64,000 nt of DNA from Candidatus Latescibacterota bacterium (GCA_965204725.1 OZ242005.1:4096001-4160000); one strand, 5' to 3'. Numbered from the stretch's first letter, positions 53,612 through 60,148 are shown. The notes: generated by a model from the sequence alone, not told the origin. Numbers and translations are program-made.

Positions 53612-53836
53612 CTCTTCACCGAGTCCGGCAGGCGATACAGCGCTGTGTAGTATTCGGCACAGCGTCTTCTTTCAGCACAAGCGGGTCCTCTCTGAAAATT
53701 TGGCTTGCGAAGCGCTGGTACGCCAATTGCAAGAGTTTTGGACCGGCTGCCTCGGCGAGTTATATTTTTTCGTGCGAGGGGAAGATCGACAAATGCTGGT
53801 AAATCCAAAACCTCTAATGCGAAGGGATTTATATAA

Positions 53837-56431
53837 TTGACGACCCTGTTTGACGATCTAAAGCAATCCGCTCTCGACTGGCGCAAGGGCGGATATACTT
53901 GTGATGAACATCCACTTATAGGCGAAATCCTCGCCTACCAGATGGAGGTGCAGGAAGGTGCGCCTGTCCTCAAGTTTCTGCGCGAACCCCAGTTTCTCGC
54001 CCTTGAGGTGTACTGGTATGTCCGGCTCAAACTGAAAACTCCCCGTATCATAGCTCTTTACAAGCATTACTACGGGGGAGATAAAAAGACCTTTTTTGAT
54101 ACGCTTGGCGTTCCAATGTCAAGGGATGCTTTGGAGTGGGCAGAAATAGATGGGGTCATTGAGAAAGTCAAAAGCGATCCAGACTTTGTCGCTGAAAAGA
54201 AAATTCAGGCATTGCACGAGGCGGCGATGCTGGACTATCCGAGTTACATTCTCGCCTTGGCCATGGGTGCCGGAAAAACCGTGCTAATCGGAACGATTAT
54301 CGCCACTGAGTTTGCCATGTCCCTGCGCTATCCCAACGGCCATTTTATGAAAAACGCCCTTGTGTTTGCGCCCGGCACGACGATTATAGAATCCTTGCGC
54401 GAACTTAGCGATATGCCTTATGAAAACATTCTGCCGCCCGATCTCTATCGAGATTTTGCCGCCAATTTGAAAATTGAGTATCCGAGCAACGAAAAGGACA
54501 TACAGGCTCAGACCAGCAGTAGTTACAACCTGATCATCACCAACACCGAAAAAATCAGTCTGCGAGCGAGGCGGAGAAGCAATCAGACCGAACTGGATTT
54601 CAAGGAAAAGGAACTGCAAGCGAACTTGAGGTTGCAAAAAATCGCCAGCCTGCCGAACCTCGGCGTCTTCTCCGATGAGGCGCACCACACTTATGGCAAC
54701 ACCTTCAACAAGCTAAAGCGGGTGCGGGAAACCATCAACTACATCCACGAGCAAACTTCTATCGTAGCCGTAGTCAATACCACCGGAACGCCTTATTACA
54801 AAAAACAGTATCTGAAAGAGGTCATTGTCTGGTACGGACTTGGAGACGGTATCAAGGATAACATTCTCAAAAACCTCAACGACGGGATTCACCAATACAA
54901 CATTGGCAAGCAGTCGGAACAGAGCGTGTTCAACGACATCATCCGAGAGTTTTTCAATCAGTATGGCAATGTCTCGCTTCCCAATGGGGCAAAGGCGAAA
55001 GTTGCCTTTTACTTTAAGACACAGGATCACTTAGACGATTCGCGTCCTTGGATTGAGCAGGCCATGACGGGAATGGGCGAAAGCGTCTCTCAGATATTGG
55101 TCAATACCCAGCAATCAAGCTCGAAGGAAGTGGATGAGTTTAAGCGTCTCAACAACCCGACTAACCAGAAGCGCGTGATTCTTCTGATTGGCAAAGGCGT
55201 CGAAGGATGGAACTGTCCGAGCCTGTTTGCCTGTGCGCTCATCAAAGAGCAGACGACGAGCAACAATTATGTTTTGCAGGCGGCGACCCGGTGCCTGCGA
55301 CAAGTGCCGGGAAACGGGCACTCGGCAAAGGTATTTCTCGATTACGGCAATGTGCGGACCCTAGACAAAGAACTGAAAGACAATTTTGGTACCGACCTCG
55401 ATCTGCTTAGCGCGGCATCGGGAGATAAAGAGACCGTAACACTGCGTATTGTAAAAACGGAACTGCCCAAACTGGAAATCACTCGGACGATTAAGCGGGC
55501 TATCCGCACTGAAAAACCAAGCGACAATCTTACCTTGAACAAACCAGAGCCGCAAGAAGCTCCTGTAGTACTCCGCAGCATTCTGACGCCGGATTTCAGC
55601 GGGCCGCGGGAAATTCTAATGCCAACTGGAGACACCAAGGAACTGCCGGCCGTAGCGGAAATGACAGGTTGCCATGCTGCCGCTTGGAAAATCGCCTCGC
55701 GCTACCATCTGCCGGTGATACCAATTCTGAAGAAGCTCAACAGCTTATATCCCGAAGGTGAAATGCCGAATACTCATTTATACGGGCTGTTTCAGCAGGT
55801 TGAAGAGCAGCAGGCGAACTACGAGACTGTGGAAGAAAAAGTTACTGAGGCGATGGCCTTAATTCGGGTTCAGGATGAGAACGGAATGGATCTCTTTGAA
55901 AAGGACGAGGACGGCGTTTACGTCCACCACTTGCGTCTGCTCAGGCGAACTTATGACCGGATGAGAAACGGCGGGCTGTTTGCTGACTGCGATGAGTATG
56001 CAGACGATCACGACTTGAGCTTCCACTACATGCCGTACAACTTCGACAGTGAACCGGAGCGTTCCTTCTTCCGGCAGATTTTGTCCGTGCTCAATACAGA
56101 CTCCGGCGATGTGAGGGCGTTTCTGTTCACGGGTGGCTTGACCGATCCTAAAAAGACCGACTTTCATTTTGAATACATGGGTGAGGACAAGCGATACCAC
56201 CGCTATTTCCCCGACTTTGTCATTGTCAAGAAGACGGGCGAATTTTATATTGTCGAGGTCAAGGCTGAGAGTGAGCGCGGCGACAGGACGGTGGAAGCAA
56301 AGAGAAAGGCCGTGGAGCGGTTACAGAATATGCAGCCGGATAAATTCAAATATAACGTCGTTTATACTCAGGCTGCTGCGATAAGCGCGGAGCAAATCAA
56401 ACCAATTGCCGATTGGATAAACTCACAATAA
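53837..56431 (+). CDS. res: Type III restriction subunit Res (SF2 ATPase plus PD-(D/E)XK nuclease)
   Basis: LREPQ, AMGAGKT, SDEAHH, TGTP, EGWNCP, QAATRCLR, YFPDF...VEVK; lower GC. Confidence 0.85.
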   Translation: MTTLFDDLKQSALDWRKGGYTCDEHPLIGEILAYQMEVQEGAPVLKFLREPQFLALEVYWYVRLKLKTPRIIALYKHYYGGDKKTFFDTLGVPMSRDALEWAEIDGVIEKVKSDPDFVAEKKIQALHEAAMLDYPSYILALAMGAGKTVLIGTIIATEFAMSLRYPNGHFMKNALVFAPGTTIIESLRELSDMPYENILPPDLYRDFAANLKIEYPSNEKDIQAQTSSSYNLIITNTEKISLRARRRSNQTELDFKEKELQANLRLQKIASLPNLGVFSDEAHHTYGNTFNKLKRVRETINYIHEQTSIVAVVNTTGTPYYKKQYLKEVIVWYGLGDGIKDNILKNLNDGIHQYNIGKQSEQSVFNDIIREFFNQYGNVSLPNGAKAKVAFYFKTQDHLDDSRPWIEQAMTGMGESVSQILVNTQQSSSKEVDEFKRLNNPTNQKRVILLIGKGVEGWNCPSLFACALIKEQTTSNNYVLQAATRCLRQVPGNGHSAKVFLDYGNVRTLDKELKDNFGTDLDLLSAASGDKETVTLRIVKTELPKLEITRTIKRAIRTEKPSDNLTLNKPEPQEAPVVLRSILTPDFSGPREILMPTGDTKELPAVAEMTGCHAAAWKIASRYHLPVIPILKKLNSLYPEGEMPNTHLYGLFQQVEEQQANYETVEEKVTEAMALIRVQDENGMDLFEKDEDGVYVHHLRLLRRTYDRMRNGGLFADCDEYADDHDLSFHYMPYNFDSEPERSFFRQILSVLNTDSGDVRAFLFTGGLTDPKKTDFHFEYMGEDKRYHRYFPDFVIVKKTGEFYIVEVKAESERGDRTVEAKRKAVERLQNMQPDKFKYNVVYTQAAAISAEQIKPIADWINSQ
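56395..56427 (+). repeat. 33-bp direct repeat copy 1 (res 3' end), followed by AGGAGGTA RBS
   Basis: AATCAAACCAATTGCCGATTGGATAAACTCACA. Confidence 0.92.
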
Positions 56432-56437
56432 GGAGGT

Positions 56438-56851
56438 ATGAACGTGAAAATCTATCATTTATTTATTAGCCATTCTTGGGCACATGCTGACGCATACAAC
56501 AATTTGGTCAACCTATTGGATCAAGCCAGTAGGTTCCGTTATCATAACTACTCTATCCCCAAATATGATCCAGTGCATGTTGGCACAGACAAAGAGCTGT
56601 CCAAGGCAATCCATGATCAAATGCAGCCGTGTGGCATCGTCATCGTTCTAGCGGGTGTATATGCCAGTTACAGCAAATGGATAGACAAGGAGATTAAAAT
56701 TGCTAGAAGTAGCTTTTCGAGACCAAAACCTATTCTAGCCATAGAACCTTGGGGGAGCGAGAAAACCTCTTCGGTCGTCAAGGAAAGTGCAAACCAGATC
56801 GTTGGATGGAATACCAGAAGCATCGTCTCGGCAATAAGGGAGCTAGCGTAA
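56438..56851 (+). CDS. TIR-domain protein (DUF1863/MTH538, ThsB-like), copy 1
   Basis: LFISHSW, VIVLAGVYASYSKWIDKEI (catalytic Glu), KPILAIEPWG, VGWNT.SIVSAI. Confidence 0.88.
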   Translation: MNVKIYHLFISHSWAHADAYNNLVNLLDQASRFRYHNYSIPKYDPVHVGTDKELSKAIHDQMQPCGIVIVLAGVYASYSKWIDKEIKIARSSFSRPKPILAIEPWGSEKTSSVVKESANQIVGWNTRSIVSAIRELA

Positions 56852-56919
56852 TGGACGAAAGAAGCAGTAATTCCCTAGCAGCAATAGGGCACACTCTGAC
56901 AACATAGATAGATTGAGAT

Positions 56920-57450
56920 ATGGGTGAGAGTACAACAACATCGTCTGGTGACTCCTATATCAAAGATAGGGTCGAAGATCAGATTCAGTACTTTGACCAG
57001 AAAGCGAGCAAGAACCAGAAATGGTATCGCTTCCTAAAGAAGACGGCCGTCGTCTCCAATATCCTCACGACAATGACCATCGCTGTCGCGTTTACCGTGC
57101 CTGACGACTACAAGGTTTGGATGGGGATCGGTGCTCTTGTTCTATCGACGCTCGTCCTAGCAACGTATCAATGGGAAGAATTTGCGAACTACGGAGCGAA
57201 GTGGGAGAGATTCCGTCTTGTCGCTGAGCTACTCAAGTCAGAAAAGTTCCTGTACAAGCATCAAGCAGGCCCCTACGCATCCGGCGATGAAAAGGGTCGT
57301 CACCGTTATCTTGTTGAAACCGTAGAGGCTATTATCCGTGGGACCGATATTTCCTACTTCTCTCTTATGGTTGACCCTGGGCGCAGGATTGAGCAACGAC
57401 TTGGACAAGGTAGCAATATCCGAGAAGCTGCTGAATCGACCGATGCTTAA
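56920..57450 (+). CDS. SLATT/DUF4231 two-TM effector
   Basis: YIKDRVEDQIQYFDQKASKNQKWY, two TM helices, W..FR..AELLKSEKFLY...GPY. Confidence 0.82.
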   Translation: MGESTTTSSGDSYIKDRVEDQIQYFDQKASKNQKWYRFLKKTAVVSNILTTMTIAVAFTVPDDYKVWMGIGALVLSTLVLATYQWEEFANYGAKWERFRLVAELLKSEKFLYKHQAGPYASGDEKGRHRYLVETVEAIIRGTDISYFSLMVDPGRRIEQRLGQGSNIREAAESTDA

Positions 57451-57520
57451 CATAGCTCGGGCACCGGGGGTTTTCAGACAGCTTCTATAGAGTAATTAGG
57501 AGACAGATATTTTCCAAAAG

Positions 57521-57553
57521 AATCAAACCAATTGCTGATTGGATAAACTCACA
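57521..57553 (+). repeat. 33-bp direct repeat copy 2 (orphan res 3' end), followed by AGGAGGTA RBS
   Basis: AATCAAACCAATTGCTGATTGGATAAACTCACA, 32/33 identical; the mismatch is synonymous (GCC/GCT). Confidence 0.92.
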
Positions 57554-57567
57554 GAGAGGAGGTAGCC

Positions 57568-57936
57568 ATGAACCTATTTATTAGCCATTCTTGGAACTAC
57601 TCAGGCGACTATTGGAGGTTAAAATCACTATTGGAAAACAGAGGATATTTTAATTTCAGAAACTACTCTGTGGAAAGTGATGAACCCAAAAATAATTGGG
57701 CAGAGATAGAGAACAATATTAAATGGTGTAGCACTGTTATTGTTATTGCAGGTGTGTATGCCAGTTATAGCCCATCTATAAAAAAAGAGATACGGCTAGC
57801 CAAAAGACATTTCAAGCCTACACTCGCCATAATTCCTTGGGGAAGTGGTAGAGCATCAGACTTAAGGAATGAATGTGACCGTGTTGTGGGATGGAACACC
57901 GAAAGCATTGTCTCAGCAATAAGGGAGTTGACCTAA
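57568..57936 (+). CDS. TIR-domain protein (DUF1863/MTH538, ThsB-like), copy 2
   Basis: LFISHSW, VIVIAGVYASYSPSIKKEI, KPTLAIIPWG, VGWNTESIVSAIREL. Confidence 0.88.
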   Translation: MNLFISHSWNYSGDYWRLKSLLENRGYFNFRNYSVESDEPKNNWAEIENNIKWCSTVIVIAGVYASYSPSIKKEIRLAKRHFKPTLAIIPWGSGRASDLRNECDRVVGWNTESIVSAIRELT

Positions 57937-58394
57937 TGGACAAAAATAGACAGGAACTTTTAGAAATTTATAAACTCCATGCCGAACTTGCGGACAGGGT
58001 GAGTCAAAGACGGGAAGGAGCAAACAGACTCTTTGTAAGCCTACTGACGGGCACACTAATTTTTCTCGCCGCTTTTTTGAGATACGGCACCGAGACCATG
58101 CCTGTAGGTGCAATTTTGACCGCCGTTAGTATTTTTGGAATTTTTCTTTCCGCAGCATGGTATATCGCTATCCGATCCTATCGTCAACTTAACTCAGGAA
58201 AGTTTGCTGCTTTACACGAATTAGAAGAAAAACTCGCCTATCCCTTTTTTAGGCGTGAATGGGAATTATTAGAAGAAGGCAAGAAGCGAAGTAGTTACTG
58301 GAAGCTTACCATTGTTGAAACCTTCCTTCCCATTGCCTTTTTTATCTTTCATATCGCTCTAATTATCGTCTCTGTTATTTTCTACCATCTGTAG
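57936..58394 (+). CDS. Small three-TM membrane protein (RipA-like oligomeric pore family, tentative)
   Basis: LEIYKLHAELADRVSQRREGANRLF, W...IRSYRQLNSGKF..LHELEEKL, EW, LT.VE..LP; TAATG coupling to TIR2. Confidence 0.7.
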   Translation: MDKNRQELLEIYKLHAELADRVSQRREGANRLFVSLLTGTLIFLAAFLRYGTETMPVGAILTAVSIFGIFLSAAWYIAIRSYRQLNSGKFAALHELEEKLAYPFFRREWELLEEGKKRSSYWKLTIVETFLPIAFFIFHIALIIVSVIFYHL

Positions 58395-58411
58395 ATAAGG
58401 GTAAAAATCAA

Positions 58412-60148
58412 ATGAAAACCTCGCTCAAAGTCGCCCCGCTCAAAGGTCGCCCGATGCTCCATTGGGTCGGCAAGAAACCGCTAGACGTCGTGCGGCATTT
58501 TCCAGCGCAGTTGTGTGAGACGGTGGAAGTTGACGATCCGCCGGCTGAACCATCCTACAAGGAATTTGCCAAGAGCAGTTACAACCTGCTGTTTCACGGC
58601 GATAACAAGGAGATTCTCTCTTCGCTGTTGATTGCCGGGTTCCGGGGCAAGATTGATCTGATTTATATCGACCCGCCGTTTGATTCCGCCGCGGATTACG
58701 TCCGCAAAGTCAGGTTGCGCGGGCAATCCAAAACGCTCAAAGGCGAGGGACATACTTCTATCGAGCAGACGCAATACGAGGATATTTGGGCGAATGACAA
58801 TTACTTGCAGTTCGTGTATGAACGGTTGATTCTACTGCGGGAATTACTGAGCGACAAGGGGGTTCTCTATCTGCATTGTGACTGGCACAAAAGCCATCAC
58901 CTACGGTTTTTGTTGGACGAGGTATTCGGCGTAGAGAATTTCGGAAATGAGATAATATGGAGCTACCGAAGATGGCCTTCTAAAACCAATAACTTCCAAT
59001 CTATGCACGATACCTTGCTTTGCTACTCAAAAGAATTGAAGCGTCACATTTTTAACCAAATGTATGAAGATCCTTCCGATAGCTACATACAGAGATTTGG
59101 AGGGAAAACGCAAATACTAGATGAGAAGACTGGCACTAGAAAAATAACGATGGAAGAGGATACAAAAGGTATGCCAATGCGCGACGTCTGGGATATTCCG
59201 ATAATCGCCGGATTCAAAAATGAACGAACCGACTTCCCAACCCAAAAACCCGAGGCCCTGTTAGAGCGCATCATCAAAGCCTCCAGTAATGAAGGCTCCA
59301 TCGTCCTTGACTGCTTTTGCGGCTCCGGCACCACCGCCGCTGTTGCAGAAAAGCTAGGCCGTCGCTGGATCGTGGCAGATTTGAACAAGGGCGCGATTCA
59401 GACTACCATCAAGCGGCTACAGAAAATCATCAACCAAAAAAACGGCGACTTGATAGAGAACGGCCGCGGCTTCATTCACTACCGGGTCAACAACTACGAC
59501 TTCGCCAAACAAAACGGACTCAAGAAAATTATCATCTCTAAGTACGGCATCCAAAAAGACAATGGCGACCTGTTTTTCGACGGCATAGTCGGCGGCAAGT
59601 TGGCGAAAATCATTGACCTGAACAGGCCGTTGAACCGGATGGATATCCAGATTATCAAAGATGAAATTGCCCACAATCGCCTGGACGAAACGCGGGATAT
59701 TGCCGTTTTCTGCAACGGCTCTGAAATGGACATCATTGACGAAATCGCCCAAGAGAGAAGCCCGATCAACAAAATCACGATCTGCGACATTCAGCAGGAC
59801 GGCGTGACAACAGACCAGCCCGCTGAGGCCGATGTGCAAATCGCTAAGAAAGGCAAAAAAGCGACGATAAAAATTGCCGACTACATTAGCCCTGCCATTC
59901 TGGCGAGAATGGAAATCGACAGAACGTTCTTTAACGAACAAATTGGCGACTTCCGAGCGCAGATCGACTACATTCTGATTGACACCGACTACAACGGCGA
60001 GAATTTCAACATCGTGAAAAACGATCTGCCGCAGCGGCGATCTGGTTTTATCGAAGGGGAATACGAACTGACGCTCCCCCGCGCCGGCGCAAAAGTCGCG
60101 GTCAAGATCGTAGATATGCTGGGCGAGGAAGTTATTGTGGTCGAGTAG
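58412..60148 (+). CDS. mod: Type III RM Mod subunit, beta-class N6-adenine methyltransferase
   Basis: LIYIDPPF, FPTQKPEALLERII, VLDCFCGSGTT, VKIVDMLGEE. Confidence 0.9.
   Translation: MKTSLKVAPLKGRPMLHWVGKKPLDVVRHFPAQLCETVEVDDPPAEPSYKEFAKSSYNLLFHGDNKEILSSLLIAGFRGKIDLIYIDPPFDSAADYVRKVRLRGQSKTLKGEGHTSIEQTQYEDIWANDNYLQFVYERLILLRELLSDKGVLYLHCDWHKSHHLRFLLDEVFGVENFGNEIIWSYRRWPSKTNNFQSMHDTLLCYSKELKRHIFNQMYEDPSDSYIQRFGGKTQILDEKTGTRKITMEEDTKGMPMRDVWDIPIIAGFKNERTDFPTQKPEALLERIIKASSNEGSIVLDCFCGSGTTAAVAEKLGRRWIVADLNKGAIQTTIKRLQKIINQKNGDLIENGRGFIHYRVNNYDFAKQNGLKKIIISKYGIQKDNGDLFFDGIVGGKLAKIIDLNRPLNRMDIQIIKDEIAHNRLDETRDIAVFCNGSEMDIIDEIAQERSPINKITICDIQQDGVTTDQPAEADVQIAKKGKKATIKIADYISPAILARMEIDRTFFNEQIGDFRAQIDYILIDTDYNGENFNIVKNDLPQRRSGFIEGEYELTLPRAGAKVAVKIVDMLGEEVIVVE

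Follow-up and report, generated by a model that had tools for sequence, protein, structure and literature searches.

A type III-like restriction-modification (RM) operon in the window (the whole 64,000-nt stretch of DNA analysed) likely carries autonomous Thoeris-type abortive-infection modules between res and mod, rather than guards of the RM enzyme. The cargo consists of two ThsB-type TIR genes and two small membrane-protein genes. A sequence-only reading had proposed TIR modules resembling Thoeris, with membrane proteins as the sole effectors, inside an RM operon; the domain matches and the gene neighbourhoods support this view.

Gene order and surroundings of the island

All six co-oriented ORFs proposed in that reading were found at the positions given, on the + strand (Table 1). 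The island has a low GC content (45–50% vs 60–67% in the flanks) and is bordered by PhoX on the upstream side and RecQ on the downstream side. The RM operon is horizontally acquired. The gaps between the six genes were, in order, 6, 68, 117, −1 and 17 nt, and a pattern scan of the + strand intergenic gaps found no terminator-like site. The modules are probably co-transcribed with the RM genes. The hairpin upstream of the island is only suggestive, because the count for the region was no higher than in shuffled sequences (10 vs a mean of 7.7). The promoter match is not significant alone, as 8 sites were found and 7.1 were expected.

Table 1. Features of the island and its upstream edge, counted from the first base of the window.
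Feature	Position	Strand	Basis
Island: res-like, TIR1, SLATT/DUF4231, TIR2, 8xMP, type III Mod; 6.3 kb	53837–60148	+	
Terminator-like hairpin after PhoX, upstream edge of the island	53640–53665	+	Pattern scan
Sigma-70-like promoter match 5' of res, candidate operon promoter	53739–53766	+	9/12 positions
res-like subunit, SF2 helicase and C-terminal PD-(D/E)xK nuclease, 864 aa	53837–56431	+	Pfam ResIII
TIR1, stand-alone ThsB-type TIR, 137 aa, 6 nt past the res stop	56438–56851	+	ThsB_TIR, 5.3e-17
8xMP start remnant (its ATG overlaps the TIR1 stop codon), a scar left by an earlier TIR1-8xMP pair	56850–56860	+	Repeat D2
SLATT_1/DUF4231 putative membrane effector, ThsH-like, 176 aa	56920–57450	+	Profile matches
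Duplicated final 44 nt of res (stop and ribosome-binding site) directly 5' of TIR2, recombination scar	57521–57564	+	
TIR2, stand-alone ThsB-type TIR, 122 aa	57568–57936	+	ThsB_TIR, 9.9e-10
8xMP three-helix membrane protein, putative TIR-signal-activated effector, 152 aa	57936–58394	+	PF24838
mod, N6-adenine DNA methyltransferase (beta class, type III Mod kind), 578 aa	58412–60148	+	N6_N4_Mtase

A 1679-nt contig from a sponge metagenome of another study spans TIR1-SLATT-TIR2-8xMP (56473–58151) with 21 differences. The composite order recurs in a separate assembly and is therefore not an assembly artefact. SIR2, Macro, SLOG and caspase domains, described earlier as missing, gave no match at E ≤ 0.01 in any of the six proteins.

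The Res and Mod subunits

Res combines SF2 helicase motifs (GxGKT, DEAH) with a C-terminal PD-(D/E)xK nuclease, as type III Res subunits do. Its Pfam ResIII match (1.5e-6) reached 28.7 bits (cut-off 22.5), and a TnsA-like PD-(D/E)xK match at the C-terminus stayed under the cut-off (21.2 vs 26.5 bits). In an alignment of 22 sequences, the invariant columns included G144/G146/K147/T148, D280-E281-A282-H283-H284 and P792-D793...E807-x-K809. The family is large (3465 homologues at E ≤ 1e-10). None of the PADLOC REase models matched Res, REase_III included, and a search of the PDB with the Res profile returned nothing at E ≤ 0.1, EcoP15I Res included. The AF2 model of Res was of poor quality (pLDDT 66), and only weak matches to SF2 helicases came from it.

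Mod is a beta-class N6-adenine methyltransferase, as expected of a type III Mod, with the motif order DPPF, then FxGxG. It matched N6_N4_Mtase (6.8e-51), PADLOC MTase_III (2e-64) and EcoP15I Mod (4zcf_A, 4.3e-19). The position of res before mod had been called unusual. It is the norm of the family, found in 68 of 70 related loci in which a mod was seen; in the other two (L071, L094), the sole mod match seen was upstream of res. The classical type III order, mod then res, is thus not that of the locus.

The TIR proteins

Two features proposed for the TIR proteins were borne out. They are paralogous (48% identity), and both keep the conserved glutamate, with TIR1 E85 and TIR2 E74 in an invariant column of a 19-sequence alignment. 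These residues align with the glutamate of two ThsB chains of solved structure (6lhy and 9b7d), and we take them to be catalytic. Both proteins are thus ThsB-type TIRs with the glutamate that Thoeris requires. TIR2 has a 7-residue deletion and is missing the Trp of the W-x-x-x-E stretch. Orthologues of TIR1 sit in the same place after res in L013 (86% identity) and L014 (76%), and they pair with 8xMP, not with SLATT.

The membrane proteins

The protein downstream of TIR2 had been described as having three transmembrane helices. It belongs to the Pfam family 8xMP (PF24838; 1.2e-35, 122.7 bits against a cut-off of 30, profile positions 1–135 of 136). Its likely start is the ATG at 57936, which overlaps the TIR2 stop by one base, and not 57891. 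The AF2 model (pLDDT 92.9) contained four helices. When modelled in four copies, the protein scored 0.48 for self-association (best control 0.00), with runs agreeing in ≥86% of contacts and a partner pLDDT of ≥71. Among solved homo-pairs, 20 of 30 reached the mark used, as did 1 of 23 single chains. The protein had no PADLOC match and, at E ≤ 0.01, nothing to PF10028 (DUF2270). PF10028 also had no match in the 168 phylum genomes, including the 22 with 8xMP, or in five 8xMP-bearing plasmid records, and it is not one of the 25 families that occur most often for 71 members of 8xMP.

The 8xMP family has 2262 cluster representatives at E ≤ 1e-3. In the 22 genomes of the phylum, it occupies 27 places: in 13 the gene immediately 5' of it is an intact TIR ORF, six more have a TIR gene or remnant beside it, and none was seen in eight. 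Outside the phylum, a ThsB_TIR gene lies directly upstream of 8xMP on plasmids of Halorubrum, Polaromonas and Haematospirillum (three of six contexts inspected, drawn from 29 plasmid records with an 8xMP match). The pairing of TIR with 8xMP is conserved in both bacteria and archaea. A search for a published experimental test of this pair found none.

The second membrane protein belongs to the SLATT group, as in type VII effectors. It matched Pfam DUF4231 (5.5e-17) and SLATT_1 (2.1e-8; 34.7 bits, cut-off 26.3) as well as NCBIfam SLATT_1 (2.3e-24; 85.8 bits, cut-off 41), and 214 homologues were found. It is unrelated to 8xMP (hhalign profile-profile probability 0.3%). SLATT relatives in two genomes of the phylum (G135 and G081) lie directly downstream of a ThsB_TIR gene, so that TIR pairing was seen for both kinds of effector gene. 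The partner of the nearest relative (G135, 66% identity) is a BcTir/8fz9-like TIR with only 16% identity to TIR1. In G081, where the SLATT protein is 28–34% identical to that of the locus, the partner TIR is 47% identical to TIR1. Because the TIR1 clade pairs with 8xMP and the nearest SLATT relative with a BcTir-like TIR, the SLATT protein may not match the signals of the local TIRs, or may lie idle.

Proposed mode of action

By analogy with Thoeris, a small ThsB-type TIR would sense phage infection and, via the conserved glutamate, turn NAD+ into an ADP-ribose-derived signal. The signal would bind a small oligomeric membrane protein, either SLATT (as in type VII Thoeris) or 8xMP. This protein would then breach or depolarise the membrane, and the infected cell would arrest or die before phage release. 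The modules would be a second line of defence, with the co-located RM system acting first.

Origin of the arrangement and the cargo slot

Each TIR gene is indeed followed by a different membrane-protein gene, as had been noted. The further idea that each TIR has its own effector oversimplifies in view of the scars, which place 8xMP behind TIR1 first. Repeat D2 (56801–56860 vs 57886–57945, 82% identical) includes the remnant of an 8xMP start, and L014 and L105 carry this scar as well. Repeat D3 (56395–56438 vs 57521–57564, 91% identical) is the duplicated end of res; the equivalent repeats in L014 are 33 nt (100%) and 34 nt (97%). These repeats show the locus to be a recombinant of res-TIR-8xMP-mod alleles in which SLATT was captured later. 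Recombination between such alleles would have produced a duplicated unit of res 3' end and TIR, and the SLATT gene would have been captured at the duplication junction.

The survey of res-mod spacers that had been suggested covered 86 Res-family loci, 68 of which have mod downstream. The spacer was ≤150 nt in 45, 151–400 nt in six and >600 nt in 17, and these 17 hold unrelated inserts. The cargo in relatives included FRG-TPR, DUF3644, Bro-N (two loci), Fic (two loci), HEPN, Abi_2, an IS200-like transposase and DUF2281. The spacer between res and mod acts as a slot for cargo, and in the lineage of the island it holds Thoeris-type modules. Turnover was followed in eight genomes of the phylum with Res identities of ≥79%. 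Their slots held TIR-8xMP, 8xMP alone or TIR-DUF2281-TIR-8xMP, or were IS-disrupted, frameshifted or reduced to a 120-nt deletion scar. Decay, IS disruption or deletion affected five of the eight (G136, G145, G092, G082 and G088).

The cassettes could be partly decayed passengers with little present function in the host. They would sit in the slot for two reasons: the res 3' and mod 5' ends are conserved, often-transferred homology arms, and an addictive RM system stabilises the contents. The duplicated res 3' ends flanking the inserts of the island and of L014 fit this explanation, as do the unrelated cargo in the 17 relatives and a 73-nt direct repeat of an HNH 5' end around a second cassette in the same genome. 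Decayed modules are common among the slot relatives, so selection on the modules may be weak. In the island itself, however, all four cargo ORFs are intact with their catalytic and family-invariant residues conserved, and the same composite occurs with few differences in the metagenome of another study. As a full account, we consider this explanation doubtful; it accounts for location, not for function, and is compatible with autonomous modules.

Relation of the modules to the RM genes

The sequence-only reading also considered a guard or backup role similar to that of PrrC, in which Res/Mod would check, or be monitored by, a TIR or effector that fires on a phage anti-restriction protein. The modules are indeed embedded in the operon, where the gaps are very short. 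RM-type genes were found ≤1.5 kb from 16 of the 27 8xMP places in the phylum, although these genomes are kin and not independent, and both other SLATT loci of the phylum adjoin RM-type genes. On a Polaromonas plasmid, the order is hsdR-TIR-8xMP-PIN. With RM-type genes so often adjacent, a functional tie is conceivable.

Validated Thoeris systems, however, work with two genes and no RM, as a preprint describes them (bioRxiv 10.64898/2025.12.03.692087). The RM neighbours of TIR-8xMP and TIR-SLATT in the phylum are also unrelated to each other (type I, ISP, III-like, MmeI-like and Mrr), which makes a specific protein contact unlikely. Pairs also stand alone: a Haematospirillum plasmid carries a lone TIR-8xMP pair, and the second cassette in the same genome (ThsB_TIR-8xMP-TIR_2-TIR_2), flanked by the HNH repeat, has no RM gene within 1.5 kb. 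Moreover, G145 lost the TIR and retained res, 8xMP and mod, and G136 lost the entire cargo with res and mod intact. As the modules occur with many kinds of RM and alone, a PrrC-like guard is improbable and the tie to RM looks positional.

Autonomous modules also remain preferred over TIRs acting as NAD+-depleting effectors or regulators with the membrane proteins as sensors or anchors, a highly unlikely arrangement given that the TIRs are minimal (122–137 aa) with no sensor or effector fusion and that SLATT proteins are an established effector class. Some bacterial TIRs do deplete NAD+ according to one preprint (10.64898/2025.12.03.692087), and the closest solved relative of the TIR profile, a B. 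cereus TIR (PDB 8fz9, 1.8e-23), is reported in another to be non-catalytic and regulatory (10.1101/2023.05.26.542521), but this type is distant from TIR1 and TIR2, and the TIRs consistently lie beside small pore-type proteins, as in the validated types V and VII described in the former.

Comparison with known systems

Like the classical type III RM systems EcoP15I and EcoP1I, the locus has two RM genes, an EcoP15I-like Mod and a Res with SF2 and PD-(D/E)xK parts. It differs in the order, res then mod, and in a Res that falls outside the PADLOC REase models and has no sequence match in the PDB. PrrC lies in the EcoprrI type I locus, under the physical control of the RM enzyme there. An abortive-infection module set between RM genes is common to both; unlike PrrC, the modules of the locus are found beside RM systems of many sorts and also by themselves.

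Type V Thoeris consists of ThsB and ThsF (DUF2270, PF10028), a small three-TM protein for which the preprint models a ring-shaped homo-oligomer (10.64898/2025.12.03.692087). The TIR and small three-TM protein of the locus are similar, and the models suggest that 8xMP also self-associates. The effector is PF24838 and not PF10028, the two being set apart by Pfam profile matches.

TIR with SLATT constitutes type VII Thoeris (ThsB + ThsH), phage-validated and using canonical cADPR as its signal (Yirmiya et al., bioRxiv 10.64898/2025.12.03.692087). The locus shares with it a stand-alone ThsB-type TIR with the glutamate beside a small SLATT protein and the lack of a SIR2, Macro or caspase effector; multi-ThsB operons with two effectors are reported there as well. 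The word 'restriction' does not occur in the main text of that preprint. In the locus, by contrast, the TIR1 clade pairs with 8xMP, the scars show secondary capture of SLATT, the nearest SLATT relative of the phylum has a partner from another TIR clade and an RM operon encloses the module; the cADPR signal and protection are established for type VII itself. Within the phylum, TIR-8xMP and TIR-SLATT pairs turn up repeatedly, some next to type I, ISP or III-like RM genes and some on their own. Both TIR modules are of described or catalogued kinds, so the novelty is lower than first estimated: the locus is a well-preserved and instructive example and not a new kind of system.

The six-gene locus

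Six co-oriented open reading frames form the locus, with intergenic gaps of 6, 68, 117, -1 and 17 nt in gene order (see the table). The locus lies in an island of 45-50% GC, against 60-67% in the flanking PhoX and RecQ genes. The gene content and domain labels given by the sequence-only reading were confirmed by the ORFs, by the domain searches and by a metagenome contig. This contig, 1679 nt long and taken from another study's sponge metagenome, covers TIR1 to 8xMP with 21 differences from the window. Because it spans these genes independently, the TIR1-SLATT-TIR2-8xMP composite is real. One 250-nt contig (run X6) connects position 56742 with 57892, the junction expected of a single-TIR allele, but with 19 differences and one side of 39 nt the match is too weak for use.

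Both TIRs had been said to keep the catalytic Glu, and they do: the Glu that is invariant across 19 related TIRs is present in TIR1 and TIR2 and coincides in the alignment with the Glu found in solved ThsB chains. The claim that they precede two different membrane proteins also held, as 8xMP and SLATT showed no relationship in a profile comparison (hhalign probability 0.3%).

The Res profile had no match in the PDB. The AF2 model of Res was of low confidence, and its Foldseek matches were weak SF2-helicase entries only. A promoter and terminator pattern scan of the region gave counts not above those of shuffles, and a search for RNA runs containing the stretch listed none.

Features of the locus, its relatives and other sites noted (G, genomes of the phylum set, G000 being that of the window; L, single loci; slot, spacer between res and mod)
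Feature	Position	Strand	Length	Evidence or content
Six-gene locus	window 53837-60148	+		res-TIR1-SLATT-TIR2-8xMP-mod
Res-like		+	864 aa	ResIII above cut-off; Walker A, DEAH and C-terminal PD...ExK columns invariant (22-sequence alignment)
TIR1		+	137 aa	stand-alone; ThsB_TIR 5.3e-17
SLATT		+	176 aa	SLATT_1/DUF4231 match
TIR2		+	122 aa	stand-alone; ThsB_TIR 9.9e-10
8xMP (earlier label "3TM")		+		full-length Pfam PF24838 match, 1.2e-35
Mod		+		PADLOC MTase_III 2e-64; EcoP15I Mod 4.3e-19
G000 slot				TIR1-SLATT-TIR2-8xMP
G140 slot				TIR-8xMP
G145 slot				8xMP only
G085 slot				TIR-DUF2281-TIR-8xMP
G092 slot				as G085, second TIR deleted
G082 slot				IS and TIR remnant
G088 slot				every gene frameshifted
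G136 slot	L012 10598-10718		120 nt	scar joining TIR start to 3' part of 8xMP; PhoX-RecQ site as in window
Second G000 cassette	G000:C1:4756322-4758189 (L009 8322-10189)	-		ThsB_TIR 138 aa, 8xMP 165 aa, TIR_2 148 aa, TIR_2 137 aa
Direct repeats of second cassette	L009 8222-8294, 10461-10533		73 nt	95% identical
Further G000 ThsB_TIR match	G000:C1:3010215-3010508 (L010)
Further G000 ThsB_TIR match	G000:C1:67032-67280 (L011)
Split mod of a Poribacteria-labelled relative	L015 12319-14911			insertion with 186-aa and 109-aa opposite-strand ORFs
Type I RM locus of G135	G135:C1:5161000-5176000 (L132)			PIN, hsdM, Fic, ThsB_TIR, SLATT, 291-aa unknown, hsdS, IS, M78-peptidase-like gene, DUF2442, hsdR

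The res-mod family and its cargo slot

Res had 3465 homologues, and 86 related Res loci were examined. In 68 of them, mod lay downstream of res on the same strand. The sole mod match seen was upstream of res in two loci, the contig stopped at most 153 nt past res in 15, and three carried other genes after res with no mod in view. On this survey res-then-mod is the norm of the family, and the description of this order as unusual was not upheld. Identical longest-contig figures for several Res, SLATT and 8xMP homologues (e.g. 5074, 19015, 23569 and 4475102) give a hint that the composite may also occur elsewhere, including on one Poribacteria-labelled contig.

The cargo of the slot was variable among relatives. 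The 68 spacers measured ≤150 nt (45 loci), 151-400 nt (six) or >600 nt (17). Long spacers held FRG-TPR, DUF3644, HEPN, Bro-N (two loci), Fic with partner ORFs (two loci), an IS200-like transposase with a NucS-like gene, and unknowns; Abi_2 was found at one Res locus without a visible mod. Among the surveyed loci, TIR cargo was restricted to a Res subclade of Latescibacterota-labelled genomes. In the Poribacteria-labelled relative with a split mod, the slot cargo was an FRG-TPR protein; we read the insertion as a putative IS630-like element whose ORFs may encode a transposase.

Slot turnover and recombination scars

Res with at least 79% identity was found in eight genomes of the phylum, and all eight hold 8xMP or a remnant in the slot. 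The spacer in G136 is empty at first sight. As its scar is a fusion of a TIR start with the 3' part of 8xMP, the cargo was lost rather than never gained.

In the window, the final 44 nt of res are duplicated directly before TIR2 (91% identical), and a remnant of the 8xMP start lies directly 3' of TIR1. The same repeats are carried by a further locus (L014). These three observations mark the window locus as a stacked recombinant. The native partner of TIR1 was 8xMP, and SLATT sits at the junction.

SLATT relatives were rare: 3 of the 168 phylum genomes carry one. One (66% identity, G135) follows a BcTir/8fz9-like TIR between hsdM and hsdS, and another (32%, G081) follows a TIR 47% identical to TIR1 and adjoins a type ISP enzyme. 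The ThsB_TIR of the G135 type I RM locus closely resembles solved B. cereus BcTir (8fz9).

The 8xMP family and its pairing with TIR

The 8xMP family comprised 2262 cluster representatives. It was found at 27 places in 22 of the 168 phylum genomes. At 13 of these places the gene immediately upstream was an intact TIR ORF; six others had a TIR gene or remnant alongside, and at eight, mostly weak 8xMP matches, none was seen. From 29 matching plasmid records outside the phylum, six contexts were inspected, and in three of these ThsB_TIR was directly 5' of 8xMP (plasmids of the archaeon Halorubrum, of Polaromonas and of Haematospirillum). Given these counts in the phylum and on plasmids, ThsB_TIR+8xMP is a conserved two-gene module. 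8xMP was also seen 3' of an NB-ARC/WD40 STAND protein on a Rhizobium plasmid (L126) and forming the C-terminal portion of a 415-aa protein (L114, G015); on account of these two cases, it may serve sensors other than TIR.

The AF2 model of 8xMP is confident (pLDDT 92.9). In it, a long N-terminal helix continues as TM1 and TM2 extends into a cytoplasmic helix, after which come a short helix and TM3. Conserved basic residues of 8xMP include K13, R25, R26 and K89. No PADLOC model recognised the window protein, the PDB sequence search with single protein and profile gave no match, and Foldseek with the model gave nothing at E≤1e-3. The best Z of the wide VIA-align search was 9.8, below the level of ~13 that is meaningful for helical proteins, and all its matches were generic helical bundles. 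The DUF2270 model did not match 8xMP on the HMM side of the comparison.

In a four-copy model, the self-association score was 0.48 versus 0.00 for the best control, with a partner pLDDT of at least 71 and at least 86% of contacts common to the runs. Of the solved homo-pairs, 20 of 30 reached the self-association mark, as did one of 23 single chains. The model supports a predicted self-association of 8xMP.

Other TIR copies in the genome

The second G000 cassette is a 2.2-kb islet of 43-46% GC without an adjoining RM gene. The same cassette was found in G046, G123, G136 and G140, with the G136 copy between hsdM and hsdS. The direct repeat that flanks it in G000 is identical with the first part of a small HNH gene, which suggests that the cassette was inserted by recombination where that gene begins, comparable to the res-3' repeats of the six-gene locus. 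One of the two further ThsB_TIR matches of G000 lies inside a 488-aa ORF.

Mechanism and alternatives

The cassettes are probably autonomous Thoeris-type abortive-infection modules within an RM operon. The RM operon would act first, and the modules would ride inside it, probably co-transcribed. On sensing infection, TIR would produce an ADPR-derived signal, and oligomers of SLATT or 8xMP would then disrupt the membrane.

A broader joint reading, which we consider doubtful, takes the slot as a site devoted to cassette exchange. Recombination would occur at short conserved stretches in the 3' end of res (stop codon and ribosome-binding site), and promoterless defence cassettes would be inserted, stacked and swapped at these points in a way loosely like that of an integron. 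ThsB-TIR+8xMP would be a putative Thoeris type, with 8xMP a new effector family possibly using a new signal, and one local TIR clade would drive the unrelated pore effectors 8xMP and SLATT.

Hitch-hiking as the explanation of the module location is rather improbable, and it is compatible with autonomous modules. The sequence-only interpretation stood as far as the Thoeris-type TIR and membrane-effector modules are concerned, but its PrrC-like guard, in which the modules monitor Res/Mod and fire when RM is disabled, is unlikely, because the same modules accompany RM systems of unrelated kinds and also stand alone, as in the second G000 cassette.

Significance and comparison with known systems

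The locus is a clean, intact natural case in which Thoeris-type modules are stacked and their two membrane effectors are unrelated to each other. TIR2-8xMP is a directly testable pair, whose effector family had no experimental record in the literature searched. What the analysis adds of most use comes from the slot survey and the scars: a widespread res-then-mod RM family has a variable defence-gene slot, and the scars record how cassettes were gained, stacked and lost in related symbiont genomes. The slot position is useful for discovering defence genes and for asking if co-transcription with RM matters.

Full-text literature searches on 8xMP (including "octameric membrane protein") and on RipA with TIR and anti-phage defence gave nothing relevant. 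Type V and type VII Thoeris, ThsF and ThsH were found only in one preprint of December 2025 (10.64898/2025.12.03.692087), and 8xMP, "3TM", "2TM" and restriction are absent from its main text. According to that preprint, TIR+SLATT is type VII Thoeris, with phage protection shown and canonical cADPR as the signal, and TIR+DUF2270 is type V, DUF2270 being a ring-forming three-TM protein. The same source lists a total of 29 putative effector types and describes islands that carry several ThsB genes as well as two-effector operons.
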